Origin: a virus
Taxonomy: Duplodnaviria > Caudoviricetes
Length of the DNA stretch: 28,774 bases
Strand: one strand, 5' to 3'
Virus record (IMG/VR): IMGVR_UViG_3300030330_002824
Coordinates: 1-28,774 of that record
Position 1 is the first letter of the stretch. The number at the start of each line of letters is the position of its first letter. The position numbers and the translations under genes are program-made. Under the pieces are notes generated by a model. That model was not told the DNA's origin, did no database searches, and saw only the letters and a list, made by a program, of their open reading frames with translations. Shown in pieces: positions 15,181 through 26,130 of the stretch.

Positions 15181-17643
15181 TTACTCGATGTTCTTCAAAA
15201 GTTCAAGGTCGGCTTTCATCGCCTCGATCTTTTCTCTGGACTCAGTTTCAGCAAGATCAACCGCAGCGTCCATTTCACTCTTGGCAATCTCTACATCGTT
15301 GTTCTCTTCCGAGATCATCTTGTTAGTAGAGATACGAGTTAACTCGACATCATTTCTCTCACGCATCTTCTCGCGATCGAGTTGCAGTCTTGCCTTCTTC
15401 TCTTCGATGTTCGCCATCGTCTCCATCTCTCTGATCTGGAGTTCCTTCTGGCGCATCTGGACAATCGGGTCTTCCGCCTGCTCCTGATTCTTCTGCTGCT
15501 GAGCCTGAGCCATGCTCTGCTGAAGAACCTTTTCCGAAGCCTGAGCGACCAGAGCCGATAGCTGGTTCTGAATTTCCGGGGGCAGATCTTCATCGAGCGG
15601 GGGCAGGGGCGCACCCAACTGCTTCTCGATCTCCGCTCTGTACTGGAACGCAATATGCTCAGTGATGTGAGCGGCCATTGCCGCCTCGATTGCCTTGGCG
15701 TTCGGCGACTTACTCACCATCTCTAGGATCTGCGGGTTCTGCACCGCACTGATATGAGTCTGGATGTGAGCTTCGTGGTCTTGCCACTGGAATGCCTTGA
15801 CCGGCTTATTGTTGAGAACTTCCATGTTCTCCGTAACCGGATCTCGGGCTTCCACCTCATCCTTGAGCGGGATGATCTGGTCAGGATCCTTGATCCCCAG
15901 AACGTCAAGCATCTGCCGGTGAAGCAGTGGCATGTCGTACATCTGGGGAGCCGTGCCTGCCAACTGGAGCGCGGCCTGATACTGCATGATCCGCTGAGCC
16001 ATCGTTGCAGAGTTCGGATCGCTAACCGGGATCACGTCAATCCGGTCATCGAAGTCCGTCTGGCTCATCATTTCGTTCCCGTCCTGATCATACGGGTACG
16101 AGTGCGGTGCATAATCCTTCACGATATCCGCGAGGATCTCGAATTCCTTCTTCATTGCAGAGTGAAGTCTGGCCTGAACCGCAGACATCACCTTCATGGA
16201 GCGTTCCAGCAGCGCGAGAGTCGTCCCGACCGGGGCCTGCTGGTTCATATCGCTGATCTGGAGGTCCGTCAGGGACGCGAAGCGCCTTCCTTCTTCGACG
16301 ATGTTCCCCAGAAGCTGATAAAGGACGCCGGAAGGCTCCTTGTACGGCAAAAACTGGATATTGTCGCGAATTGCACCACTCGGAACGTCCACATCGCGGA
16401 ATTCGCCGGGCGTAATCGGCGTATCGTCGCCCCGAATCCGTAATCCGCGCGATTTCAGGCCACCCGGGAGGTTACTGAGCGTACCTGCGTCCACTAACTG
16501 GCGAAGAATCGACGTTGCAGACTTCGCAATGCCGCCAATCATGTGAATTAAGCCGAATCCGTAGAACCCAAGGCCCGGGATGTACTCATAACTGACGAAA
16601 TGCTGACGGGGCGTGTAGTTTTCGTCGTCTTCCAACCAGTTTCGGCGGATCGAAAGGACTTTTCTAGAGCCCTTATCGATCGTAACCACATAAGGAAGGG
16701 CGATTCCGGTCTCTTCCCCGTCCTTTGTATGCTCAAAACCTGCGAGATCGATGTCAGTCTGGATCTCAAGCAGGGTGCAGCGGCTGTCATTCTCGAATCC
16801 GGGGCTTTCTCCGGTTAAATCGTCGTACTCTTCTTGAATATCCGAGATGCTTCCGTTGTCCGGGTCGATATCCACGTCCGCGTAGAAGCCATTCACCTGT
16901 AATTTCCGCACATCATTGCGGTTTCGCTTCATTACATGGGTGATTCTTTCGGCAGTTTCTAGGGTCGAAGCCCCATAAGACACCACCAAGTCTTCTGCCG
17001 GGACAAACATTGCACAGGGGCGGCCCATATTGGCGTCCCAGTACACCTTTCGGAAGGCGGAACCTGCCAGCGGAAGACTGAAGAGCATCTTCTCCGTCTC
17101 CGCGCGGTACTCGGTCATTACTTCCGTGACCATGTAGTTCATAAACTCTTGAACGCGCGCGGCCTGCTTGGCCTTCTCGTCCGTGATGCGGCCTACGATC
17201 TTGGTCGAAACAGGGCCAGCAGCCGGGAAAATTTCTCCAATCGCCTGAGACTGGAAACGCACAACTGCTTCAGAAAGTATTGGATGGGTGACTCCACAAG
17301 CTCCCTCCCAGGGAGAAGTTCTGTCCTCAATCTTCAAGCCAAGCTGCTTGAGGCCCTTGATGTAGGTCTCTTCCCAGTCCTTCCGGCTGCCCTTATCCGA
17401 AAGAAAAGCCCCCACTAACTCCGAAGACAGACGAGTGAGATCCTGCTCGTCCATGAACTCGACAAGATTGGAGTCGAACTCGTCTCCGGCCAGACTCTCG
17501 TCCGGGTCGAAGTCGATGATCATGCCGCCATCTTCCGCCTCGATGATGACGGACTCAGGGTTCACAACTTCGATGGAGACTTCCTCATCCATGAAATCGC
17601 TAGAACTCATCGGCATATCTGTAAGGGCTTTTTCAATCGCCAA
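15181..17643 (-). CDS. Portal protein (820 aa, P22-like with long C-terminal coiled coil)
   Basis: SRKDWEETY..GL..LG...PWEGACGV.HP.L.EAVVRFQ...LPLAGSAFRKVY...GFYGFGLIH..G...LRQLVDAGTLSNLPGG; Q/E-rich helical tail. Confidence 0.9.
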   Translation of the reverse strand: MAIEKALTDMPMSSSDFMDEEVSIEVVNPESVIIEAEDGGMIIDFDPDESLAGDEFDSNLVEFMDEQDLTRLSSELVGAFLSDKGSRKDWEETYIKGLKQLGLKIEDRTSPWEGACGVTHPILSEAVVRFQSQAIGEIFPAAGPVSTKIVGRITDEKAKQAARVQEFMNYMVTEVMTEYRAETEKMLFSLPLAGSAFRKVYWDANMGRPCAMFVPAEDLVVSYGASTLETAERITHVMKRNRNDVRKLQVNGFYADVDIDPDNGSISDIQEEYDDLTGESPGFENDSRCTLLEIQTDIDLAGFEHTKDGEETGIALPYVVTIDKGSRKVLSIRRNWLEDDENYTPRQHFVSYEYIPGLGFYGFGLIHMIGGIAKSATSILRQLVDAGTLSNLPGGLKSRGLRIRGDDTPITPGEFRDVDVPSGAIRDNIQFLPYKEPSGVLYQLLGNIVEEGRRFASLTDLQISDMNQQAPVGTTLALLERSMKVMSAVQARLHSAMKKEFEILADIVKDYAPHSYPYDQDGNEMMSQTDFDDRIDVIPVSDPNSATMAQRIMQYQAALQLAGTAPQMYDMPLLHRQMLDVLGIKDPDQIIPLKDEVEARDPVTENMEVLNNKPVKAFQWQDHEAHIQTHISAVQNPQILEMVSKSPNAKAIEAAMAAHITEHIAFQYRAEIEKQLGAPLPPLDEDLPPEIQNQLSALVAQASEKVLQQSMAQAQQQKNQEQAEDPIVQMRQKELQIREMETMANIEEKKARLQLDREKMRERNDVELTRISTNKMISEENNDVEIAKSEMDAAVDLAETESREKIEAMKADLELLKNIE

Positions 17644-17959
17644 ATCGTTTCCTTCTAAAGCATGTACTTAGTAGGACGAAAAAAAGAAGAGCAATATTTA
17701 TTGAACTTGGTTCGGGCAGATGAACAGGAAGGTGGTTTGACCACACGCTGTATCCATCATCACCAACCGCTCTAGATCTAATGAGCAAAGCCGATTCGGG
17801 TATTTCGACTATTGCTTGAAAACATTCGAGACAATCATCAACCGGCTCGACCCGGAGAACCCATTCCCACTCATTGGACCCGGCTCTTTGGAACTGGAAC
17901 TCCCAACTATTAATCAGTTGAGATTGAGGCTGTTGCCAGTAAAGAGTCTTTTCCGGCAT
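17633..17959 (-). CDS. FN3-like protein with PEP-CTERM-like C-terminus (108 aa)
   Basis: L.W...W...RSRAV...GYS.WS resembles fibronectin type III. Ends LPEPSS-INIALLFFVLLSTCF-RRKR. Confidence 0.6.
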   Translation of the reverse strand: MPEKTLYWQQPQSQLINSWEFQFQRAGSNEWEWVLRVEPVDDCLECFQAIVEIPESALLIRSRAVGDDGYSVWSNHLPVHLPEPSSINIALLFFVLLSTCFRRKRFGD

Positions 17960-18456: not shown

Positions 18457-19131
18457 CTATTCGTAGGGTATCGTGAATTCACTAAACCCACGCTTGTCTC
18501 TGGCTAAAGTCCTCATCAATATGTTTCCCGCTGCCTCGGGTTGAAAAATCGACTTAACTGCATCTCCTAAAAACCGAAACGGATTCTCTTTTATTTCATT
18601 CTTTACGGCATCACCTTCTTGGTAAAGCCAGTCATACGGATCTCTGATCGTCACAGTCCCATCATCATTTTTAAAAGCGTTGAAGTGACCCAGGGTCGTG
18701 TTCAATCGGTAGCTAGGAGAAAGAAAACTTTGCCCGACTGCGGTGGGGATCGATGGACCCGTTCCATACCCAGGCGCATTCCAGTCCGGCTCAACGGAGA
18801 TCTTGTTTCTATCTTTATTGAAAGAAGCAAGTTTTTTTCTGTACTCAGCCGCAGCGTTTTCGGCGCTACGCAAAGGCAACGGATCATCGGGAGTGGGAGC
18901 AAAAACCTCTTGATGATGCTCATACGCATCCCTGAGGCGTTTTTCTTCTAATTTATTCCGGTTCTCGTGAAACCTTATTCTTCGCTGCATCTCTTTAATC
19001 TCCTCATCGGAGAAATCTTCTGCGCGAATGAGACTGCTCGTATTAGACGGGTCTCTAAATAAGTTCCTAAGAAAAATCCTGGCGTTCAGGGGAACCGCAG
19101 AGGCGATACCGCCATTTCTGTTTTCACTCAT
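18457..19131 (-). CDS. Hypothetical protein (224 aa)
   Basis: TAATG coupling to terminase; TTLG.F....DGTVTI.D.YDW motif. Confidence 0.7.
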   Translation of the reverse strand: MSENRNGGIASAVPLNARIFLRNLFRDPSNTSSLIRAEDFSDEEIKEMQRRIRFHENRNKLEEKRLRDAYEHHQEVFAPTPDDPLPLRSAENAAAEYRKKLASFNKDRNKISVEPDWNAPGYGTGPSIPTAVGQSFLSPSYRLNTTLGHFNAFKNDDGTVTIRDPYDWLYQEGDAVKNEIKENPFRFLGDAVKSIFQPEAAGNILMRTLARDKRGFSEFTIPYE

Positions 19132-20648
19132 TAGTAGTAATCCGCTCTTACGGGGATGAAGTCATCCTCGTCATCATCCGTGTTCAGAGAGACAAACCCA
19201 CCCTGCCGGAAACGAATCAACGCTTGAGTCGAGGAGTCAACGAGGTCGTCATGCTCTCCAGACGGGAAAGCCGCGAACTCTTCCATGACCTCCTCGGAGA
19301 ATCTTCTGTCGGGACACCAAACCATCCCGGAAGCGAATAGATCCGAGACAGCATTAACGCGCGCAATTTTGTCGTTCCCCCGGGAAGGCGTGTACTCCTG
19401 CACCGGGATGCCCATTGCTCTCAGCTCAAAAATAAGGGGAAGTCCCGCTGCCTTCGCTTCCACGATGAAGGCGTCCGGGGACCACCGCTTCCATTCCTCA
19501 AAAGCCTTCATCTTCAGCTCTGGGAATTCCATCCGGGCTTTCATGGCATCCAGCAAGATGAGGTTGGGCTGATCCCGGCCTTCATCGTCTGGCATGTAAA
19601 ATATTCCCCACGTCGTACACGCGGAGTAATCCGATCGCTCCTTCTTGAGAAATGCCGTATCCCAAGATTGAATTATGAACTCGCAGGGAGGTGGGGAGTC
19701 CTCCGTCCAGTGCCGCCACCACTCTCTCTTGATGATGGCGCCCTCTTCCGAGGTTGGGTCTTGCTGATACTGAGCGGACCACTTCGATACAGGCAACTCG
19801 GAGCGGAGCTTCGTCAGTTCATCTAGCGACCAGAACCCAGGCCAGAGGGGGCTGCCGGAAGGAAGGATCGCAGGGAGTTCGATCACTTCCCATTCATCGG
19901 CACCCTCGCGCTGAACGGAGGACTTCAAAATCTGCCCGGTCAAATCACGCTTATGCCAACGAGTCATAACAATAATAATGGCACCTCCGGGCTGGAGTCT
20001 CTGGCGAGGCCCAGACGTGTACCACTCATATGTTCTGTTGAAGACCGTTGGGTCCGCGCTTTGACCCTCTTGCTCGGAGTGGGGGTCATCAATAATGAGT
20101 AGGTCAGCACCCTTACCGGTTACTGCACCCCCCACCCCGATTGCGAAATATTCTCCTCCCTCAGATGTGTTCCATCGACCAGCCGCTTTTGAATCTTGCT
20201 GGAGTTTTACCCCAGGGAAGATCGACTGGTAATCCGGGCTCCCGACAAGATTCCTCACCTTACGGCCAAACCCAACTGCGAGTTCAGCCGTATGCGCTGT
20301 TTGGATCACCTTCTTTCCGGGGTACTTACCTAAGAACCATGCCGGGAGATGGTACGAGGCAAACTCACTCTTCGTATGGCGAGGAGGCATGTTGATGATC
20401 AACCGCTTCAACTCACCGCGAGCCACACGCTCAAAAGCGCGGGCCATCATTTCGTGATGCTTCCCTTCGATGAAAATCGGCCAAGCAGCCTTCACGAACT
20501 GAATAAAATCGTCTTGGCAGTCCTCTTGCTTCTTGAGGTTCTTGTAATGCTCTACAAGAGTTTTAAGACGCTCCATCTTCTCTAAAGGAAGACTGTCCAG
20601 CTTATCCAAGTACGGCTCTAGAACAGATAAATCCAGATCTGTACTCAA
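19131..20648 (-). CDS. terL: Terminase large subunit (505 aa)
   Basis: RLIINMPPRHTKSE (Walker A), GKGADLLIIDDP (Walker B), MTRW, SWDTA nuclease motif and HDDLVDS. Confidence 0.95.
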   Translation of the reverse strand: MSTDLDLSVLEPYLDKLDSLPLEKMERLKTLVEHYKNLKKQEDCQDDFIQFVKAAWPIFIEGKHHEMMARAFERVARGELKRLIINMPPRHTKSEFASYHLPAWFLGKYPGKKVIQTAHTAELAVGFGRKVRNLVGSPDYQSIFPGVKLQQDSKAAGRWNTSEGGEYFAIGVGGAVTGKGADLLIIDDPHSEQEGQSADPTVFNRTYEWYTSGPRQRLQPGGAIIIVMTRWHKRDLTGQILKSSVQREGADEWEVIELPAILPSGSPLWPGFWSLDELTKLRSELPVSKWSAQYQQDPTSEEGAIIKREWWRHWTEDSPPPCEFIIQSWDTAFLKKERSDYSACTTWGIFYMPDDEGRDQPNLILLDAMKARMEFPELKMKAFEEWKRWSPDAFIVEAKAAGLPLIFELRAMGIPVQEYTPSRGNDKIARVNAVSDLFASGMVWCPDRRFSEEVMEEFAAFPSGEHDDLVDSSTQALIRFRQGGFVSLNTDDDEDDFIPVRADYY

Positions 20649-20920: not shown

Positions 20921-21166
20921 TTACTCGATGATGAGACCGTCCACGTCTACGGCAGATCTAGTTTCTACCCAAAGCCGCGCCCCGCACCCTAAAGGCTTGT
21001 CGGGGCGGTAAATCACTTCACTCGGACCCTCTATCTTTACACTAAAACCTTTTACCGATTTACCTCGGTTTTGCACAGTACACGGGGGCAGTAAGGATCC
21101 TAAAGGGTTTTTTATATTTTTCCGTATAACGTGCTGATCCACATGTATGCGCTTAATCGTATTCAT
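20921..21166 (-). CDS. Conserved phage hypothetical protein (~81 aa)
   Basis: RIHVDQHVIRKN...P.TV...V.I.GPS.VIY.PDKPL.CGARLWVET motif; ATG at 21166. Confidence 0.75.
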   Translation of the reverse strand: MNTIKRIHVDQHVIRKNIKNPLGSLLPPCTVQNRGKSVKGFSVKIEGPSEVIYRPDKPLGCGARLWVETRSAVDVDGLIIE

Positions 21167-21812
21167 CGAAAGCTCCACTGGCATCCAGATTCAACTCAAC
21201 AAGCTTCACCTCCGGGGTAATACCATCTAAGGCATCCTCGGATACGGTTTCCTGCGGGGGAATAGCTACAGAATCCGTGATTGTTTGTGCAGAATCGTGT
21301 GTAGTGATGTGGGGGTGGTCGTCGTCGCGCAAGGGGGGTTGGGGGTCGGGCGTCACATCCAGCTCGAAGCCAACCTCCGGGTCGTCCAGCGTGTCAGCTA
21401 GCAGAGCGTGGATCGACGCGGCCACCTCGGCGGCGCTCGAAGACTGGCCGACACCCTCGGGCGTCGATCGGTCGGACCCGAAGAGATCGATGGTCCCGAC
21501 ACTTCCAAGTGTACGCAAGGCAGCGATCCGATCGGACGCGCGTTCGGCTGACTCCGCTTCGCGCCAGAGTGCGGAAACGATCCGTTCGCGATCGGCGGCG
21601 GCACGCGCTCGGCCTCGAACTAACAGGTCCTGTCGAAGAGTCTCCGCGTACCGTTGCACTTCGGGCGAACGCCAGAGTCGTGAAGCTTCCGCCCTGACAT
21701 TCTTCGGTGTCGCCTCGGTCTGGCGCGTGTCCCTGAAAGCTTGAGTAATACTGGGCGCTTCCCCGTAGACGATGGCCTCGGTGAAACGTCGATTGCGTTC
21801 TGATAAAGGCAT
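21153..21812 (-). CDS. terS: Terminase small subunit (219 aa)
   Basis: LSERNRRF...G...TQAF...AEASRL...PEV..Y...L...RERIV..L..EA...DRIAALRTLG, the pattern of HTH small terminases. GGAGG RBS; upstream of terL. Confidence 0.75.
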   Translation of the reverse strand: MPLSERNRRFTEAIVYGEAPSITQAFRDTRQTEATPKNVRAEASRLWRSPEVQRYAETLRQDLLVRGRARAAADRERIVSALWREAESAERASDRIAALRTLGSVGTIDLFGSDRSTPEGVGQSSSAAEVAASIHALLADTLDDPEVGFELDVTPDPQPPLRDDDHPHITTHDSAQTITDSVAIPPQETVSEDALDGITPEVKLVELNLDASGAFDEYD

Positions 21813-21893
21813 TGGATGTTAGTTCCCTCCGTCATACAAGGGTAAAGCCTTCGCGCCATCGGTAAACCCTCAGACCCTGTTAGGCTTCGTCAC

Positions 21894-21907
21894 TTTACCC
21901 GGGTAAA
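21894..21907. repeat. Palindrome TTTACCCGGGTAAA copy 1
   Basis: Perfect 14-bp palindrome, intergenic upstream of terS. Confidence 0.9.
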
Positions 21908-21914
21908 TCCAGAC

Positions 21915-21951
21915 AAAAGAAAACCCCGGGAAGCTTTCGCCGCCCGGGGTT
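21915..21951 (-). terminator. Intrinsic terminator after the 247-aa gene
   Basis: Minus-strand AACCCCGGG-cggcgaaagcuu-CCCGGGG-UUUUCUUUU. Confidence 0.8.
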
Positions 21952-21973
21952 CCTTCGGCCTATGGCCTTGGCG

Positions 21974-22717
21974 TTATGCCGTCTTAGCCTTGGCCTTCGC
22001 GGCCTTCTTGGCCTTGGCCTCGGCCTTCGATGCCTCGGCCTTCTCGGCCTTAGCCTTCTCGGCGGCGAACGTCTCGGACACGATATCGCGAAGCACGTCC
22101 TCGACCTCGGATCGCGTGGCCTTCTCGGCCTTGGCGTAAGCCTTCACTGCCGAGGCCAGCCGATCGCGATTCGACTTCGCCGGACGTGCCCAGTTGAGGC
22201 GCATCCGCCGAGAGTCGAGCGGTCGCGACTGGTCACCTTCGCCGACCGTGAAGTCGGACCCGATGAAGTTGGCGACTGCGGCGACCCGGCCTTCGGCGTC
22301 CTTCGCCGAGTCGATTCGCGACACGATCGCCGACCGAGTGTCGGAGTGAGTCGCGAAGGCCTTGGCAATCGTTCGGATCTTATCCAGCACCGTGTTCGCC
22401 TTGACGTCGGCGTCGACTTTGTACCCGTAAGCCTCGGCGAAGGCTTCGCGGACGAAAGTCGAACGCGCCGCCTGTCGGGCCTTTGTATCCTTCCCGATCG
22501 CTTTGCCCGATCGGATCAAGTCGGCGAGTACTTCGCCCTTCTTCCCGATCGGCACCGTGAGAAAGTGGACGATCGCCGCGGCCTCGGCCTCGGCCTGCCG
22601 GTAGTGAAGGTTCGATTCCTTCTCTGCCAGCGCGACCGCGTCGGCGACCTTCTTCTCTCCGGCCTTCGCCGCCTTCTCGGCGGCCTTCGCGATTTCTACC
22701 AATTCCATTTCGTTCAT
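21974..22717 (-). CDS. Ala/Lys-rich helical hypothetical protein (247 aa)
   Basis: GGAAGG RBS, strongly biased GCC/AAG codon use, own promoter and terminator; basic tail KAEAKAKKAAKAKAKTA. Confidence 0.8.
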   Translation of the reverse strand: MNEMELVEIAKAAEKAAKAGEKKVADAVALAEKESNLHYRQAEAEAAAIVHFLTVPIGKKGEVLADLIRSGKAIGKDTKARQAARSTFVREAFAEAYGYKVDADVKANTVLDKIRTIAKAFATHSDTRSAIVSRIDSAKDAEGRVAAVANFIGSDFTVGEGDQSRPLDSRRMRLNWARPAKSNRDRLASAVKAYAKAEKATRSEVEDVLRDIVSETFAAEKAKAEKAEASKAEAKAKKAAKAKAKTA

Positions 22718-22788
22718 CCTTCCGGGCGCGTCGCGCGCCCTATGTGGCGGGGGGGTCCCCCGCCCACCCCTTCATGGGGTGGAGCCCC

Positions 22789-22815
22789 ATTATAGCATTT
22801 GACACTACCTGTCAA
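22789..22815 (-). promoter_or_regulatory. Leftward sigma70-like promoter
   Basis: Minus-strand TTGACA-15 nt-TATAAT with extended -10 (TGCTATAAT); both hexamers are perfect consensus. Confidence 0.75.
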
Positions 22816-22825
22816 CACCTCTCGT

Positions 22826-22839
22826 TTTACCCGGGTAAA
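22826..22839. repeat. Palindrome TTTACCCGGGTAAA copy 2
   Basis: Perfect copy, 10 nt upstream of the leftward -35 box. Confidence 0.9.
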
Positions 22840-22840
22840 T

Positions 22841-23001
22841 CCGCGACCCCCCGCCCACCGGCACCCCTGCACCCATGCCCGCACCCACCCACGCCCACCC
22901 GCACCCATGCACGCCTGCGCCCGCGCCTGCCTGCGCGCGCGTACCCGCCCGCGCCCGCGCCCGCGAGAATCAGAGAGATGTGGGTCAGAGAGATGTGGGT
23001 C
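22841..23001 (+). repeat. C-rich low-complexity tract plus 15-bp tandem repeat
   Basis: Recurring GCACCC/CCCGC/GCGC units, then CAGAGAGATGTGGGT twice (22971-22985, 22986-23000). Confidence 0.8.
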
Positions 23002-23045
23002 GAATATCGGCTCAGAATTTGACAGAATTATTTTATGAACACCTA

Positions 23046-23074
23046 TTGACTTATAGTGTATGCTGTCCTACCTT
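23046..23074 (+). promoter_or_regulatory. Rightward sigma70-like promoter
   Basis: TTGACT-17 nt-TACCTT in an AT-rich island. Confidence 0.55.
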
Positions 23075-23105
23075 CAGAACTCCTGAGAAAATTTTTTTTC
23101 AGTTA

Positions 23106-23150
23106 GTTTTACCCGGGTAATTCGACGGTCGTTTTACCCGGGTAATTCGA
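23106..23150. repeat. Palindrome copies 3 and 4 within a 20-bp direct repeat
   Basis: GTTTTACCCGGGTAATTCGA at 23106-23125 and 23131-23150. Confidence 0.9.
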
Positions 23151-23159
23151 GGAGGACGA

Positions 23160-23800
23160 TAGACCTACATGCCCCGCACCAGAGCGGGCCGCGAGCATGA
23201 CCTAGCGGGTGCTGGCGGGACGGCTTAGCCGGACAGTCTGGAACGTGTAACGGCCCACTTCGGGGGCTGGGCGGCGCCTTCGGTCAGCGTGTCATCTGCC
23301 CACACAATATGACGGGATGCAGTCTGCGACCCTATGAGTCGCGGCGACCCTGCAATCCAGCGACCGCCCTGCCCCCTGCGTTATGAGTGCAGAGCAGTGT
23401 GGATCGCTCGCCCCACCGGGACGGGGCACCGGATTGAGCAGGGTGTATTCGACGGGATGCCACCGGATGGTTCCGCCCAACGGGGGAATGCCATGTGATT
23501 TACCCGGGTAAATCTACGGCTAACGCCCGCCGTCGAATGCGCCTCAGAACCACCGCCGCGCATTGTGATACGGCTGCAAAACTAGGTCAGATGTGACAGG
23601 TCTGGTGTGAGCCTAGGGTGCCCAAGGGCCAGCGCGTAGTTTTCTAACGCCCACACGATCACGGTCCAGCGCGCGACCGCAGCGTGTGGCAATCCACCGG
23701 CCATGACCCCGTAGTCTGGGCGAGCTGGTGGTCTCGGTATCTGCCGATCGGTGAATCGGTGAACCACCCTTTGACCGATGGGCAGAACCCATCTGCCCGG
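23160..23800 (+). ncRNA. Candidate large structured non-coding RNA or very long structured leader (boundaries approximate)
   Basis: No plus-strand ORF of 60 aa or more. More than 10 stems, many with G-U pairs on the plus strand, two C(UUCG)G loops, and a 15-bp long-range helix 23441-23455/23530-23544. Confidence 0.6.
23497..23514. repeat. Palindrome copy 5 (extended, 18 bp)
   Basis: GATTTACCCGGGTAAATC. Confidence 0.9.
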
Positions 23801-23801
23801 G

Positions 23802-23819
23802 AATTTACCCGGGTAAATT
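23802..23819. repeat. Palindrome copy 6 (extended, 18 bp)
   Basis: AATTTACCCGGGTAAATT, abutting the GAGGA RBS of the next gene. Confidence 0.9.
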
Positions 23820-23829
23820 GAGGAACGAA

Positions 23830-24084
23830 ATGAACGAGAAGTTCAGGGTTGACGTGCATGTGGAGCCGTGCCCGTATGACCCAGAGGAGTACGTCAGCAT
23901 CCGAATCAGCGGGCTCAGCCCGGATCTGGGTCCGAACGTCCGCAGCTTCGGGGTCCGTTTCAGGATGAAGTGGTCGCGGAGGGGTGACGCCCTCGGCGTG
24001 GCGCTTCTGATGAAGCCGATCGAGAAAGCTCTCAAGCTGTACGACCTCAATCTCTCCCATGTGGCAGGCATCATATTCGGATAG
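23830..24084 (+). CDS. Hypothetical early protein (~84 aa)
   Basis: GAGGA RBS then ATG at 23830 (MNEKFRVDVHVEP...). Confidence 0.75.
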   Translation: MNEKFRVDVHVEPCPYDPEEYVSIRISGLSPDLGPNVRSFGVRFRMKWSRRGDALGVALLMKPIEKALKLYDLNLSHVAGIIFG

Positions 24085-24093
24085 GAGTACGAG

Positions 24094-24279
24094 ATGAAAA
24101 GTTTTTTCTCTGAGTTCATGCGTCTCGAAGAGTCCAAGGCCATCACCCAGCGGCGATCCCGCAAGGGGATTCCCAAGGTGATAACCGAGGAACATCTCCG
24201 CAGGATGAAGCGGAGGGAGTGGATTGACGAGGGTCAGACCACCAAGCTGGGGGATCTCCCCGGGAAGGAGGAGAAATGA
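24094..24279 (+). CDS. Hypothetical protein (61 aa)
   Basis: AGGAG RBS; ATGA overlap with the next gene. Confidence 0.7.
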   Translation: MKSFFSEFMRLEESKAITQRRSRKGIPKVITEEHLRRMKRREWIDEGQTTKLGDLPGKEEK

Positions 24280-24545
24280 TCCCCGGACTTATCACACTCG
24301 GATGCATTCGCACCCACCAACTTCCGGCAAATGAGACGCGCCCCGCTCGCATCGTCGTCTACGAGGATGAGCAGTTCGGAAACGAGCCGAGGAGGCTGGT
24401 TGTCGAGTGCCGCTCTGATTTCACGATCAGGGAGAACCACTACCGAGCCGCCCAAATGTGGCTCGATAAACACAACCCGGGCCATCGCCCGATGATGCCC
24501 GGTCTCCACTTCGAGTGGGACTACTACTGGGCGTGGGAGGCTTAA
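24276..24545 (+). CDS. Hypothetical protein (89 aa)
   Basis: AGGAGG RBS. I.T..LP..ETRPARI...NH..AA motif. Confidence 0.75.
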   Translation: MIPGLITLGCIRTHQLPANETRPARIVVYEDEQFGNEPRRLVVECRSDFTIRENHYRAAQMWLDKHNPGHRPMMPGLHFEWDYYWAWEA

Positions 24546-24547
24546 CC

Positions 24548-24847
24548 ATGTCGAGATATCCCAACACAACTTTCGTGAACGTCTACCTGATCGACCGGGC
24601 CTACGGCGGCCCCGAGGAGGGAGGCTGGTACTACACGATGGGTTCGTTCTGTGACGGAGAGGCATTCCCTGACGAGAGGGAGGAGGATGTCGAGCGAGCA
24701 GTGGAACAGGCCAAGGCCCGCTGCAAAGACTGGAACGAGAAGCGCAACTCCGATATCGGATCGGTGCTTTCCGATGGGAGGTATGTGGTCAGGATCGAGA
24801 ACCATCCCGGGAAAAACTTCCCGGATGCGAAGCCTCACTACGAGTGA
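24548..24847 (+). CDS. Conserved phage hypothetical protein with GGPEEGGW motif (~99 aa)
   Basis: GGAGG RBS then ATG at 24548. VNVY..DRAYGGPEEGGWYY...P..KPHYE. Confidence 0.8.
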   Translation: MSRYPNTTFVNVYLIDRAYGGPEEGGWYYTMGSFCDGEAFPDEREEDVERAVEQAKARCKDWNEKRNSDIGSVLSDGRYVVRIENHPGKNFPDAKPHYE

Positions 24848-24849
24848 GA

Positions 24850-24863
24850 TTTACCCAGGTAAA
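24850..24863. repeat. Palindrome copy 7 (one mismatch)
   Basis: TTTACCCAGGTAAA between a stop codon and the AAGGAG RBS, which it overlaps. Confidence 0.8.
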
Positions 24864-24873
24864 GGAGAGTGGA

Positions 24874-25152
24874 ATGAAGCCCAAAGAGATTCGATGGACG
24901 TATCCCGAAGATATTCGATGGACGGTGGTGGCGGACGTGCAAACCGAGACACCCGAGGGAGCAACCACCACGAGGGGTGCGCCTAGCTTCGAGGTCTGGG
25001 CGTGCAGTGCCAAGGAGGCACACACCAAGGCCAAGGACATTCTCACCGTTAGTTGGCGGGGGCCGACCAAGGTGGGGATCAGCATGGGTCTGTGTGACTC
25101 GAATGGGAACTACTTCTCGGCAGACGAGAAGGGAATCAAGGAGGAGAAGTGA
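24874..25152 (+). CDS. Hypothetical protein (~92 aa)
   Basis: AAGGAG RBS then ATG at 24874. Short internal repeat EIRWT/DIRWT. Confidence 0.7.
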   Translation: MKPKEIRWTYPEDIRWTVVADVQTETPEGATTTRGAPSFEVWACSAKEAHTKAKDILTVSWRGPTKVGISMGLCDSNGNYFSADEKGIKEEK

Positions 25153-25313
25153 TGCGAAGAAAAGGACGAGTGGTGCGAGTAGTGACGGAGGCTTTCGCTG
25201 GTGGGCGAGGCAAGGGTGGTGGTCGGAAGGTGGAGCTTGTGACCTACAAGAAGCTCCCCGGCAAGGGTGCCACCAACCCCCGGAATCGGAAGGCGATCAA
25301 GGAGTCGAAGTGA
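25152..25313 (+). CDS. Small basic protein (53 aa), below the ORF-track cutoff
   Basis: TGATG coupling and AGGAGG RBS. MRRKGRVVRVVTEAFAGGRGKGGGRKVELVTYKKLPGKGATNPRNRKAIKESK. Confidence 0.6.
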   Translation: MRRKGRVVRVVTEAFAGGRGKGGGRKVELVTYKKLPGKGATNPRNRKAIKESK

Positions 25314-25504
25314 AGTGTGTGAAGTGCGGATCTCACGTCAAAAAGAGACGGGTCCAACTGGGTTACAAGATCTGCCTTGAATGCGGAGCGAAGGCCGCTG
25401 CCGCAGAGGCGATGAGAAGGGCGGGGTGTGTCGCCCCTGCCTTCAACAAGGGTGCGTACCAGCCGGTGTTCACCCTGCAAGATGCAAAGGATGTGGGTAG
25501 ATGA
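25310..25504 (+). CDS. C4 zinc-finger protein, DksA/TraR-finger-like (64 aa)
   Basis: AAGGAG RBS, GTG start. CVKCG....KRRVQLGYKICLECG...NKGAYQ. Confidence 0.75.
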   Translation: MKCVKCGSHVKKRRVQLGYKICLECGAKAAAAEAMRRAGCVAPAFNKGAYQPVFTLQDAKDVGR

Positions 25505-25545
25505 GTTACGAGGTGTAGCTCGAACCAACAGGGGGGGGTGAGAGT

Positions 25546-25617
25546 ATGACGATGGCAATTGCTGTGGTTGTTTACGTTTTGTTTCTGATCTTTTTGATCA
25601 ACAAAGTAGGAGGATGA
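25546..25617 (+). CDS. Possible 23-aa hydrophobic peptide
   Basis: MTMAIAVVVYVLFLIFLINKVGG after a G-rich RBS-like stretch; fills the gap in the operon. Confidence 0.4.
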   Translation: MTMAIAVVVYVLFLIFLINKVGG

Positions 25618-25618
25618 A

Positions 25619-25861
25619 GTGAAGGTGAAGGATAGTGATACGAAGGAATCGAGAGAGTACGAGCCGATGTACATCAACCAGATAACGGAGGATGATGAGT
25701 ACGATAGAAACGAAATGGATCGGGCTGTGTATATGGCTTTGATGGATCAGCTAGAGCGTGACCGCATCGCAGAAGAAGGGAGTGCGCTGCGAGGTCTGGT
25801 CTGGGCTCTGGCTTGCATGAGCATGGCTGCTCTAGCCATTGGCTTTTTCATGGGAGAATGA
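25619..25861 (+). CDS. Hypothetical protein with C-terminal TM helix (80 aa)
   Basis: AGGAGG RBS; acidic N-terminus; GLVWALACMSMAALAIGFF. Confidence 0.7.
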   Translation: MKVKDSDTKESREYEPMYINQITEDDEYDRNEMDRAVYMALMDQLERDRIAEEGSALRGLVWALACMSMAALAIGFFMGE

Positions 25862-26115
25862 GAGTGGATGACGAAGAAGTGGACAATGACCAGTTGGCAG
25901 ATCTAGTCGTTGTTCTGGAGATGCAGTACGACGACCGCTCCCCATTCAAAGGGATGATCGATCTTTCTCCGGCAATCAAAACTCTTCGGCAGTTGGATAT
26001 CCACCAGCACCGTCAGGTGTATAGCCAGCTAACGGATAGCGCCAAGGAGAACATCTGGATGGAGACGGAGGGCCACATGGCTCTGAAGGATTTTATTAGG
26101 AAGCACCGGGAGTAG
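25858..26115 (+). CDS. Hypothetical protein (~85 aa)
   Basis: ATGA overlap at 25858 with the upstream stop. Confidence 0.65.
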   Translation: MRVDDEEVDNDQLADLVVVLEMQYDDRSPFKGMIDLSPAIKTLRQLDIHQHRQVYSQLTDSAKENIWMETEGHMALKDFIRKHRE

Positions 26116-26116
26116 A

Positions 26117-26130
26117 TTTACCCGGGTAAG
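26117..26130. repeat. Palindrome copy 8
   Basis: TTTACCCGGGTAAG within AGATTTACCCGGGTAAGTCT, right after a stop codon and upstream of a promoter-like element. Confidence 0.85.

Follow-up and report, generated by a model that had tools for sequence, protein, structure and literature searches.

The stretch between positions 23146 and 23804 of the window (by which we mean the whole 28,774-nt stretch of DNA analysed, 28.8 kb from an uncultured marine phage with a podovirus-type genome, estimated to be 48% complete) is a real, strongly constrained non-coding element that carries locally conserved, partly compensated hairpins and is bracketed by operator-type palindromes. We hold with middling confidence that the early promoter transcribes it as a new structured 5' leader RNA belonging to the early operon. 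An earlier note had proposed a large structured non-coding RNA here. That reading stands in so far as the stretch is non-coding, constrained and shares compensated hairpins with a distant relative, but neither the pairability of the single sequence nor a global fold is borne out; the observation beneath it likewise held for the missing ORF, the stems, the promoter and the missing terminator, but not for overall folding.

In the preferred reading, the early promoter would give an early message headed by a structured 5' leader of ∼700 nt, which would set how much of that message survives and is translated. The leader would act in cis, by affecting how stable the message is, how it is processed at the long 3' hairpins and how accessible the first ribosome binding site (RBS) is, and a tiny upstream ORF is possibly part of this action. 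A DUF2239-type repressor would bind the palindromes at the ends and in the middle of the leader, which are predicted operators; the palindromes point to repressor control at the DNA level as a second layer. Few structured RNAs exceed 500 nt, and every addition to them has led to new biology. If the stretch is a working RNA, it would give access to the way in which such phages begin an infection.

The gap between the structural and early arms

The stretch sits in a 1.1-kb divergent gap (22718-23829) separating the structural and early arms. By large terminase the closest cultured relatives are the Pelagibacter phages HTVC027P and HTVC023P and phage 023Pt_psg01, at ∼55% amino acid identity. Two HTVC023P papers, one of them PMC9599517, contain none of the words non-coding, intergenic, ncRNA or untranslated, and PMC9599517 does not speak of palindromes either. 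A related, complete phage of 56.9 kb, L170, was found via a 110-aa early protein, which has relatives (P0001-P0004) at 71-91%. The main features of the window are as follows.

1-22717, minus strand: structural genes
15181-17643, minus-strand structural arm: portal
19131-20648, minus-strand structural arm: large terminase
21153-21812, minus-strand structural arm: small terminase
22840-22999, upstream of the leader in the same control region: tract rich in C, and a pair of iteron-like direct repeats of 15 bp
23047-23075, plus strand: early promoter-like site TTGACT-17-TACCTT, read from the sequence
23146-23804, plus strand: ORF-free conserved leader, delimited by closed frames, codon use, strain identity and L170 homology
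23150-23229, plus strand: SD-like GAGGAGGA, ATG 23170 13 nt later and a 19-codon ORF, a putative upstream ORF
from 23830, plus strand: early genes (small genes, an ATPase and a putative metallopeptidase-domain gene)

The putative metallopeptidase-domain gene carries Pfam DUF2201_N and falls in a PHROGs family labelled HNH endonuclease. In the structural arm, the C-terminus of a 108-aa protein (17633-17959) weakly resembles PEP-CTERM, with an E value of 0.0017 that does not reach the Pfam cut-off.

The claim that the stretch holds no credible ORF is upheld. All six frames are closed, the longest open run being 81 codons, and no frame has coding-like codon use: the codon-usage score, for which 41 window genes served as training set, does not rise above -0.02 in any frame (windows starting at 22700-23700), whereas true frames average 0.24 and have their 5th percentile at 0.05. 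The stretch has 63% G+C in a window of 51%, and the L170 leader likewise has 63% in a genome of 56%. The small ORF at 23170 has a counterpart in L170 (GGAGG-12-ATG followed by a 4-codon ORF), and the small-ORF peptides at conserved AUGs differ between the two phages, with no peptide conservation.

It might still be supposed that the stretch is decayed or recoded coding sequence, either frameshifted genes or a gene in which TGA is read through. One plus-strand frame (23147-23647) is, on a by-eye reading, broken only by TGA, four times, and six of the first seven variable strain sites fall in one phase. Besides the codon use, however, L170 lacks the TGA-only pattern and has mixed stops in every frame of its leader, translated similarity to 117 related loci is absent, and a 42-codon ORF at a conserved AUG has one synonymous against four non-synonymous variants by eye. 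This explanation is already close to refuted, and we give it scarcely any credence.

The stretch belongs to no described RNA family. Rfam 15 covariance models gave 0 matches in the window at the gathering score, and even at E<=1 (window 21646-25304 and L170) the comparison, which had been proposed as a check, returned only a chance snoRNA match on the other strand and outside the stretch; GOLLD, ROOL, OLE, HEARO, RNase P, group I/II introns, riboswitches and ribozymes are among the families that found no match. ARAGORN predicted 0 tRNA or tmRNA genes in the window. These results agree with the earlier statement that hallmarks of tmRNA, RNase P RNA, tRNA and group I/II introns are missing.

The promoter pointed out upstream, TTGACT-17-TACCTT, is indeed present at 23047-23075, but it is weak by consensus and scores under the threshold of the promoter scan. 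At the homologous place L170 has a 12/12 consensus promoter (TTGACA-16-TATAAT, extended -10, 1909-1936) facing the leader. The terminator scan was empty in 22600-24300, as had been reported, and at the end of the L170 leader, and no second promoter was found ahead of the first early gene in either phage. None of the listed sequencing runs holding the stretch is on record as RNA-derived. A discrete ncRNA gene would carry its own promoter and an intrinsic terminator; here the promoter is present and the terminator absent. Since a promoter lies upstream and neither a terminator nor a second promoter occurs before 23830, a long 5' leader is favored over a discrete 640-nt ncRNA, and the regulatory leader that the earlier note had held in reserve is the better fit.

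Several large phage RNAs invite comparison, among them GOLLD and ROOL, which are suspected to act in trans during host takeover. By analogy the stretch could be a stand-alone large ncRNA of a new class, cut out of the message or terminated by a factor, and likewise acting in trans during host takeover. A size of 620-660 nt, the excess of G+C, near-invariance across ocean samples, conserved hairpins and the empty Rfam comparison would all suit such an RNA. Yet neither a terminator-like site nor a second promoter precedes the gene at 23830, the element is single copy in each genome, the window's own sequence has a weak folding z, and nothing signals discrete ends, and we therefore regard this as rather improbable. 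GOLLD, ROOL and OLE (Rfam families; cryo-EM paper PMC12286853) resemble the stretch in being several hundred nt long, G+C-rich relative to the genome and full of hairpins, and GOLLD and ROOL in being often phage-borne. The window element differs in matching no Rfam model even at E<=1, in its place as a leader that follows a promoter and runs up to the first early gene with no terminator, and in being known from only two lineages.

Other known systems bear comparison as well. The early leader of satellite phage P4 holds the CI immunity RNA and the repeats seqA, seqB and seqC. The stretch is similarly a long untranslated leader at the head of an early operon, and the 9-mer ATTCGACGG, with direct copies at 23119-23127 and 23447-23455 and a complementary copy at 23530-23538, recalls the seqA/seqB/seqC layout. 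A P4-type leader would keep its complementary repeats among relatives, however, and the ATTCGACGG repeats are confined to the window lineage, where they lie in an insertion that L170 lacks; nor does the window contain lysogeny genes. The early transcript of phage T7 has RNase III hairpins before gene 0.3, and T7 shares with the window a podovirus-type genome, a long non-coding start of the early transcript and, ahead of the first gene, imperfect hairpins of some length; the sequences are unrelated. RNA II of ColE1, the primer transcript of the plasmid, is likewise structured and non-coding, with a length of ∼550 nt and origin-like repeats next to it; it differs in being part of a plasmid system, and neither an antisense partner nor a sign of priming is seen in the window.

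Conservation among strains and in a distant relative

Strain contigs of four sequencing runs, from marine metagenomes of four studies, were compared with the window over 23090-23835.

X5, 23090-23835: 12 differences in 746 nt
X7, 23090-23835: 13 differences
X15, 23090-23835: 14 differences in 743 nt
X20, 23090-23835: 11 differences in 617 covered nt

Identity in the stretch is thus 98.1-98.4% with no indels, and the flanking genes differ by 6-15%. Over 22782-24868, X15 has 158 differences, just 14 of them inside the stretch, and at 22149-22713 it has 86 in 565 nt; X5 has 89 differences and 12 gap letters in 804 nt at 22149-22952 and 32 differences in 366 nt at 24351-24716, and X7 has 30 in 244 nt at 24270-24513. 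The stretch is several-fold better conserved among strains than the neighbouring protein-coding DNA and is the most conserved segment of the phage across samples from 2014-2025. Near-identity beside diverged flanks means that the stretch is strongly constrained, that it was recently exchanged, or both. Three haplotypes occur, each with private changes within the stretch, so that it is not a single recent copy.

At longer range the control region of L170 repeats the order of the window: small terminase, C-rich tract, iteron-like repeats, promoter, palindrome, leader, palindrome, RBS. Its leader, homologous to 23146-23804, is ORF-free and 620 nt long (1997-2615). The small genes that follow differ between the phages and the leader is retained, with the spacing of its anchors kept (13/14, 154/153 and 78/82 nt in window/L170). 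The block 23173-23244 is 82% identical to L170, above any gene in the comparison; over their whole length the leaders have 44% identical columns, arranged in islands, and the window leader has ∼85 nt extra, within which lie palindrome O3 and a 15-bp helix. The leader is more conserved than the genes among close strains and less alignable at long range, a pattern that recent exchange of the segment would also give.

Only two lineages of the leader are known. A blastn comparison of 22700-24300 and the L170 leader with 50,697 phage records found no match, and neither neighbour protein (84 aa, 247 aa) was found in IMG/VR. Exact matching there gave 0 matches to a 20-mer and four to the 18-mer GGGTGCTGGCGGGACGGC, one true and three by chance; in GTDB the same 18-mer had 111 matches, all by chance. 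No DNA or translated similarity was seen at 80 TerL-related loci (3/64 parts of the collection scanned), no homologous leader at the 79 loci to which distant relatives of the 110-aa protein led, and a covariance model of the 5' block, run over 84 sources, recovered the two known copies only.

Folding and conserved hairpins

The structural elements on the plus strand are listed below.

23173-23231, plus strand: 5' domain with hairpins H1 (23173-88), H2 (23189-23218) and H3 (23221-31), aligned to L170 2022-2094
23369-23397, plus strand: two-tier hairpin with the invariant loop UUAUGAG
23441-23544, plus strand: insertion of the window lineage, with a 15-bp helix (23441-55/23530-44) enclosing palindrome O3
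23628-23689, plus strand: conserved block GCCAGCGCGUAG..UAACGC, followed by a hairpin of two tiers (outer stem 23651-57/23683-89, inner stem 23662-66/23675-79)
23694-23800, plus strand: 3' hairpins 23694-23731 and 23735-23800, just before gene 1

Every stem that the earlier note had listed is present in the sequence, but its description of the stretch as almost continuously pairable fails on the window sequence alone, since the whole 659 nt folds no better than shuffles (plus z -1.47, with 1/20 shuffles as good; minus z -1.17). The note had itself named folding no better than controls as a refuting outcome, and for the window sequence alone this is nearly what was observed. Calculated on both strands, as the note had also proposed, the half 23146-23499 has z +0.33 on plus and -0.26 on minus (100 shuffles); the half 23512-23804 has z -2.13 on plus (2/100) and -1.18 on minus. 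The L170 leader by itself beats its shuffles on plus alone, with z values of -2.45 (0/100) and -1.85 (4/100), against 0.02 and -0.97 on minus. GGA (CsrA-type) motifs are not enriched (13 vs 13.2; 23 vs 18.0). Strain variants give the whole-leader minimum-energy fold no support: of the 20 in 23146-23804, nine keep and eight break pairs on the plus strand, and five keep and eight break them in the minus-strand fold.

The hairpins were also compared one by one with L170. In the 5' domain, the stems of H1 and H2 have 13 pairs, 12 invariant and one changed from A-U to G-U; the stem of H3 is likewise unchanged, and the loops of all three hairpins differ between the phages. By eye, ∼12 differences of the 5' block lie in loops and linkers against one in stems, and no helix of H1 or H2 has a two-sided change. 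The UUAUGAG hairpin keeps its outer CUGC/GCAG and has an inner stem of CUGCG/UGCAG in the window against CUCG/CGAG in L170 (2226-2240), so that two pairs differ in both partners and one G-U has become G-C. In the hairpin at 23651-23689, whose alignment is anchored by GAUCA and CAGCG flanks, three of the five pairs of the inner stem are changed on both sides (CGGUC/GACCG against UCGGC/GCCGA at L170 2426-30/2438-42), as are two of the three overlapping pairs of the outer stem. This amounts, on a by-eye reading, to seven double compensatory pairs in two anchored hairpins and no broken pair. L170 also has long hairpins at the 3' end (2510-2598).

A pairwise consensus fold was obtained by structure-profile alignment followed by RNAalifold, the null being the whole pipeline run on column-shuffled, re-aligned pairs (n=45). 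The 5' part stands out on plus (z -2.98, 0/45) and not on minus (-1.11), while the 3' part folds on both strands and better on minus (plus z -2.15, 2/45; minus -3.97, 0/45). A plain global MAFFT alignment gave consensus folds of z -1.57 on plus and +0.48 on minus. Two-sided changes are no more numerous than under the null (11 observed for a null mean of 7.8, with 5/45 shuffles as high; 7 for 5.0, 10/45), and with only two lineages no statistical covariation test is possible. The proposed collection of homologs thus yielded one distant relative, whose hairpins carry the seven double changes, but in a number that the null also reaches.

The long-range 15-bp helix singled out by the earlier note is real and exceeds chance, being longer than any helix in 100/100 dinucleotide shuffles (mean 11.0, max 14), but it lies in the insertion that L170 lacks and is therefore specific to the window lineage. 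In this region X15 has two changes from G-U to A-U and one broken pair.

Given these mixed results, it might be asked whether the stretch has any function beyond its palindromes, so that its conservation would reflect recent segment exchange and its stems would have arisen by chance at 63% G+C. Folding of the window at the shuffle level, two-sided changes within the null, the split of variants into nine that keep and eight that break pairs, and the low long-range identity are all what would be seen in that case. It would not be expected, however, that the same length, anchors and hairpins recur in a phage whose neighbouring early genes have been replaced, that the two genomes share no DNA better conserved than the 5' block, that none of 100 shuffles matches the L170 plus strand at z -2.45, or that three haplotypes have private changes. 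We consider an absence of function quite improbable.

There is reason to think that the plus strand is the one transcribed. The perfect L170 promoter faces the leader, the folding signal of the 5' part is confined to plus, and three variants in supported helices are G-U on plus and would be A-C on minus; from these pointers in the sequence we infer transcription of the plus strand.

Palindromes and the DUF2239 family

The earlier note missed a 16-bp palindrome, ATTTACCCGGGTAAAT, which occurs in eight copies in 21895-26129 against 0.02 expected. Copies at 23109, 23134, 23500 and 23805 flank the stretch and split it in two.

23107-23148, directly 3' of the promoter: tandem palindromes O1 (23109-23120) and O2 (23134-23145), 25 bp apart
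23498-23513: palindrome O3, inside the window-specific insertion and enclosed by the 15-bp helix
23803-23832, plus strand: palindrome O4 (23803-23818), SD GAGGAA and ATG 23830 of the first early gene
702, 774, 1705, 1979 and 2616 (reverse-complement coordinates of record G001): copies of the L170 palindrome

The copy at 23805 abuts the RBS of the first early gene and that at 24851 likewise abuts an RBS. In L170 the palindrome is AGACGTA-N5-TACGTCT, at the same five places as in the window, and its copy at 2616-2634 precedes the RBS of gene 2648. It appears that the operator, and presumably the regulator with it, was swapped between the phages and the layout kept. An apparent loose end of X15 at 23500 was considered as a rearrangement but turned out to be only the palindrome copy that this contig has at 26118.

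Tandem palindromes were found at 48 loci when metagenome contigs were scanned, one locus being identical to the window. Among the 47 others, 19 or more (L122-L167; unrelated bacteria) have tandem TTTACCCGGGTAAA at the start of a gene of the DUF2239 family (PF09998), the pairs being 27-29 bp apart and usually placed around a TTGAC -35 box; in the window O1 and O2 are 25 bp apart directly after the promoter, as befits a tandem operator. Because tandem palindromes mark the starts of DUF2239 genes, the palindrome is very likely a DNA operator of the DUF2239 family, and tandem TTTACCCGGGTAAA is likely the auto-operator of DUF2239, an unstudied regulator family for which no paper was found in the literature searched and whose profile has no match among PDB sequences. 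PF09998 has no match in the six frames of the window (48% of the phage) or in the complete L170, so that a host protein is the simplest candidate binder, and we infer that the palindrome would be bound by a host-encoded DUF2239-type protein. A 61-aa early protein was considered as a mini-DUF2239 and set aside at an hhalign probability of only 7.5%. The palindrome link would supply the first testable function for the family, that of a DNA-binding autoregulator, and it suggests that the phage is wired to a regulator of its host.

Repeated operator-type sites are familiar from mycobacteriophages, as the stoperators of Cluster A and the start-associated sequences of Cluster K. The window palindrome is comparable as one exact short site repeated between genes, with three copies abutting an RBS (23805 and 24851; L170 2616), but its sequence is different and it also marks bacterial DUF2239 promoters.

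With so many palindromes, the whole stretch could be a control region at the DNA level, in which the bound repressor loops the intervening DNA and the hairpins are incidental or signals in single-stranded DNA; such a region may include a replication origin next to the iteron-like repeats. The eight exact copies, the places kept in L170 despite the changed sequence, and the use of the same tandem site at bacterial DUF2239 promoters would all follow, and the iteron-like repeats, AT-rich stretch and skewed C-rich tract just upstream, like the 3' part folding as well on the minus strand, are consistent with it. Looping or an origin would explain distance, however, and not the near-invariance of ∼650 nt or the compensatory changes in stems; origins are usually AT-rich, whereas the stretch has 63% G+C; and the 5' part folds on plus only. 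We judge this explanation unlikely, though it deserves to be taken seriously, and retain the early leader with repressor control as its second layer. A bolder version, speculative and in our view improbable, is that the stretch represents a new class of ornate phage RNA of ∼650 nt, from the first transcript entering the cell and almost unchanged across the world's oceans, which would serve during host takeover as a free RNA machine or decoy, with a borrowed host DUF2239 gating its synthesis.

Elsewhere, CsbD-like genes are divergent from DUF2239 in four tandem-palindrome loci. Large marine contigs carry arrays of 2-5 palindrome copies with ∼22-bp spacing at many places (L120, L121, L124, L126, L127, L129, L138, L143, L146, L150, L152, L153, L159, L162, L163 and L166), adjoining DUF134, helicase, UDG and other genes. 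These arrays could reflect a global regulon, or be a lead to the phage host.

Upstream of the leader, the C-rich tract and repeat region (22840-22999) is conserved in L170 (1730-1860). Both phages have a C-rich (CCCRC)n tract (window 22840-22965, L170 1730-1815), whose other strand, rich in G, would become the leader of the late (structural) operon; the tract is a candidate for quadruplex or R-loop formation. The iteron-like direct repeats of 15-16 bp comprise TCAGAGAGATGTGGG, present twice at 22970-22999, and three related copies in L170 (1821-1860); in the window they adjoin an AT-rich stretch (23000-23100), and the two together are a possible replication origin.
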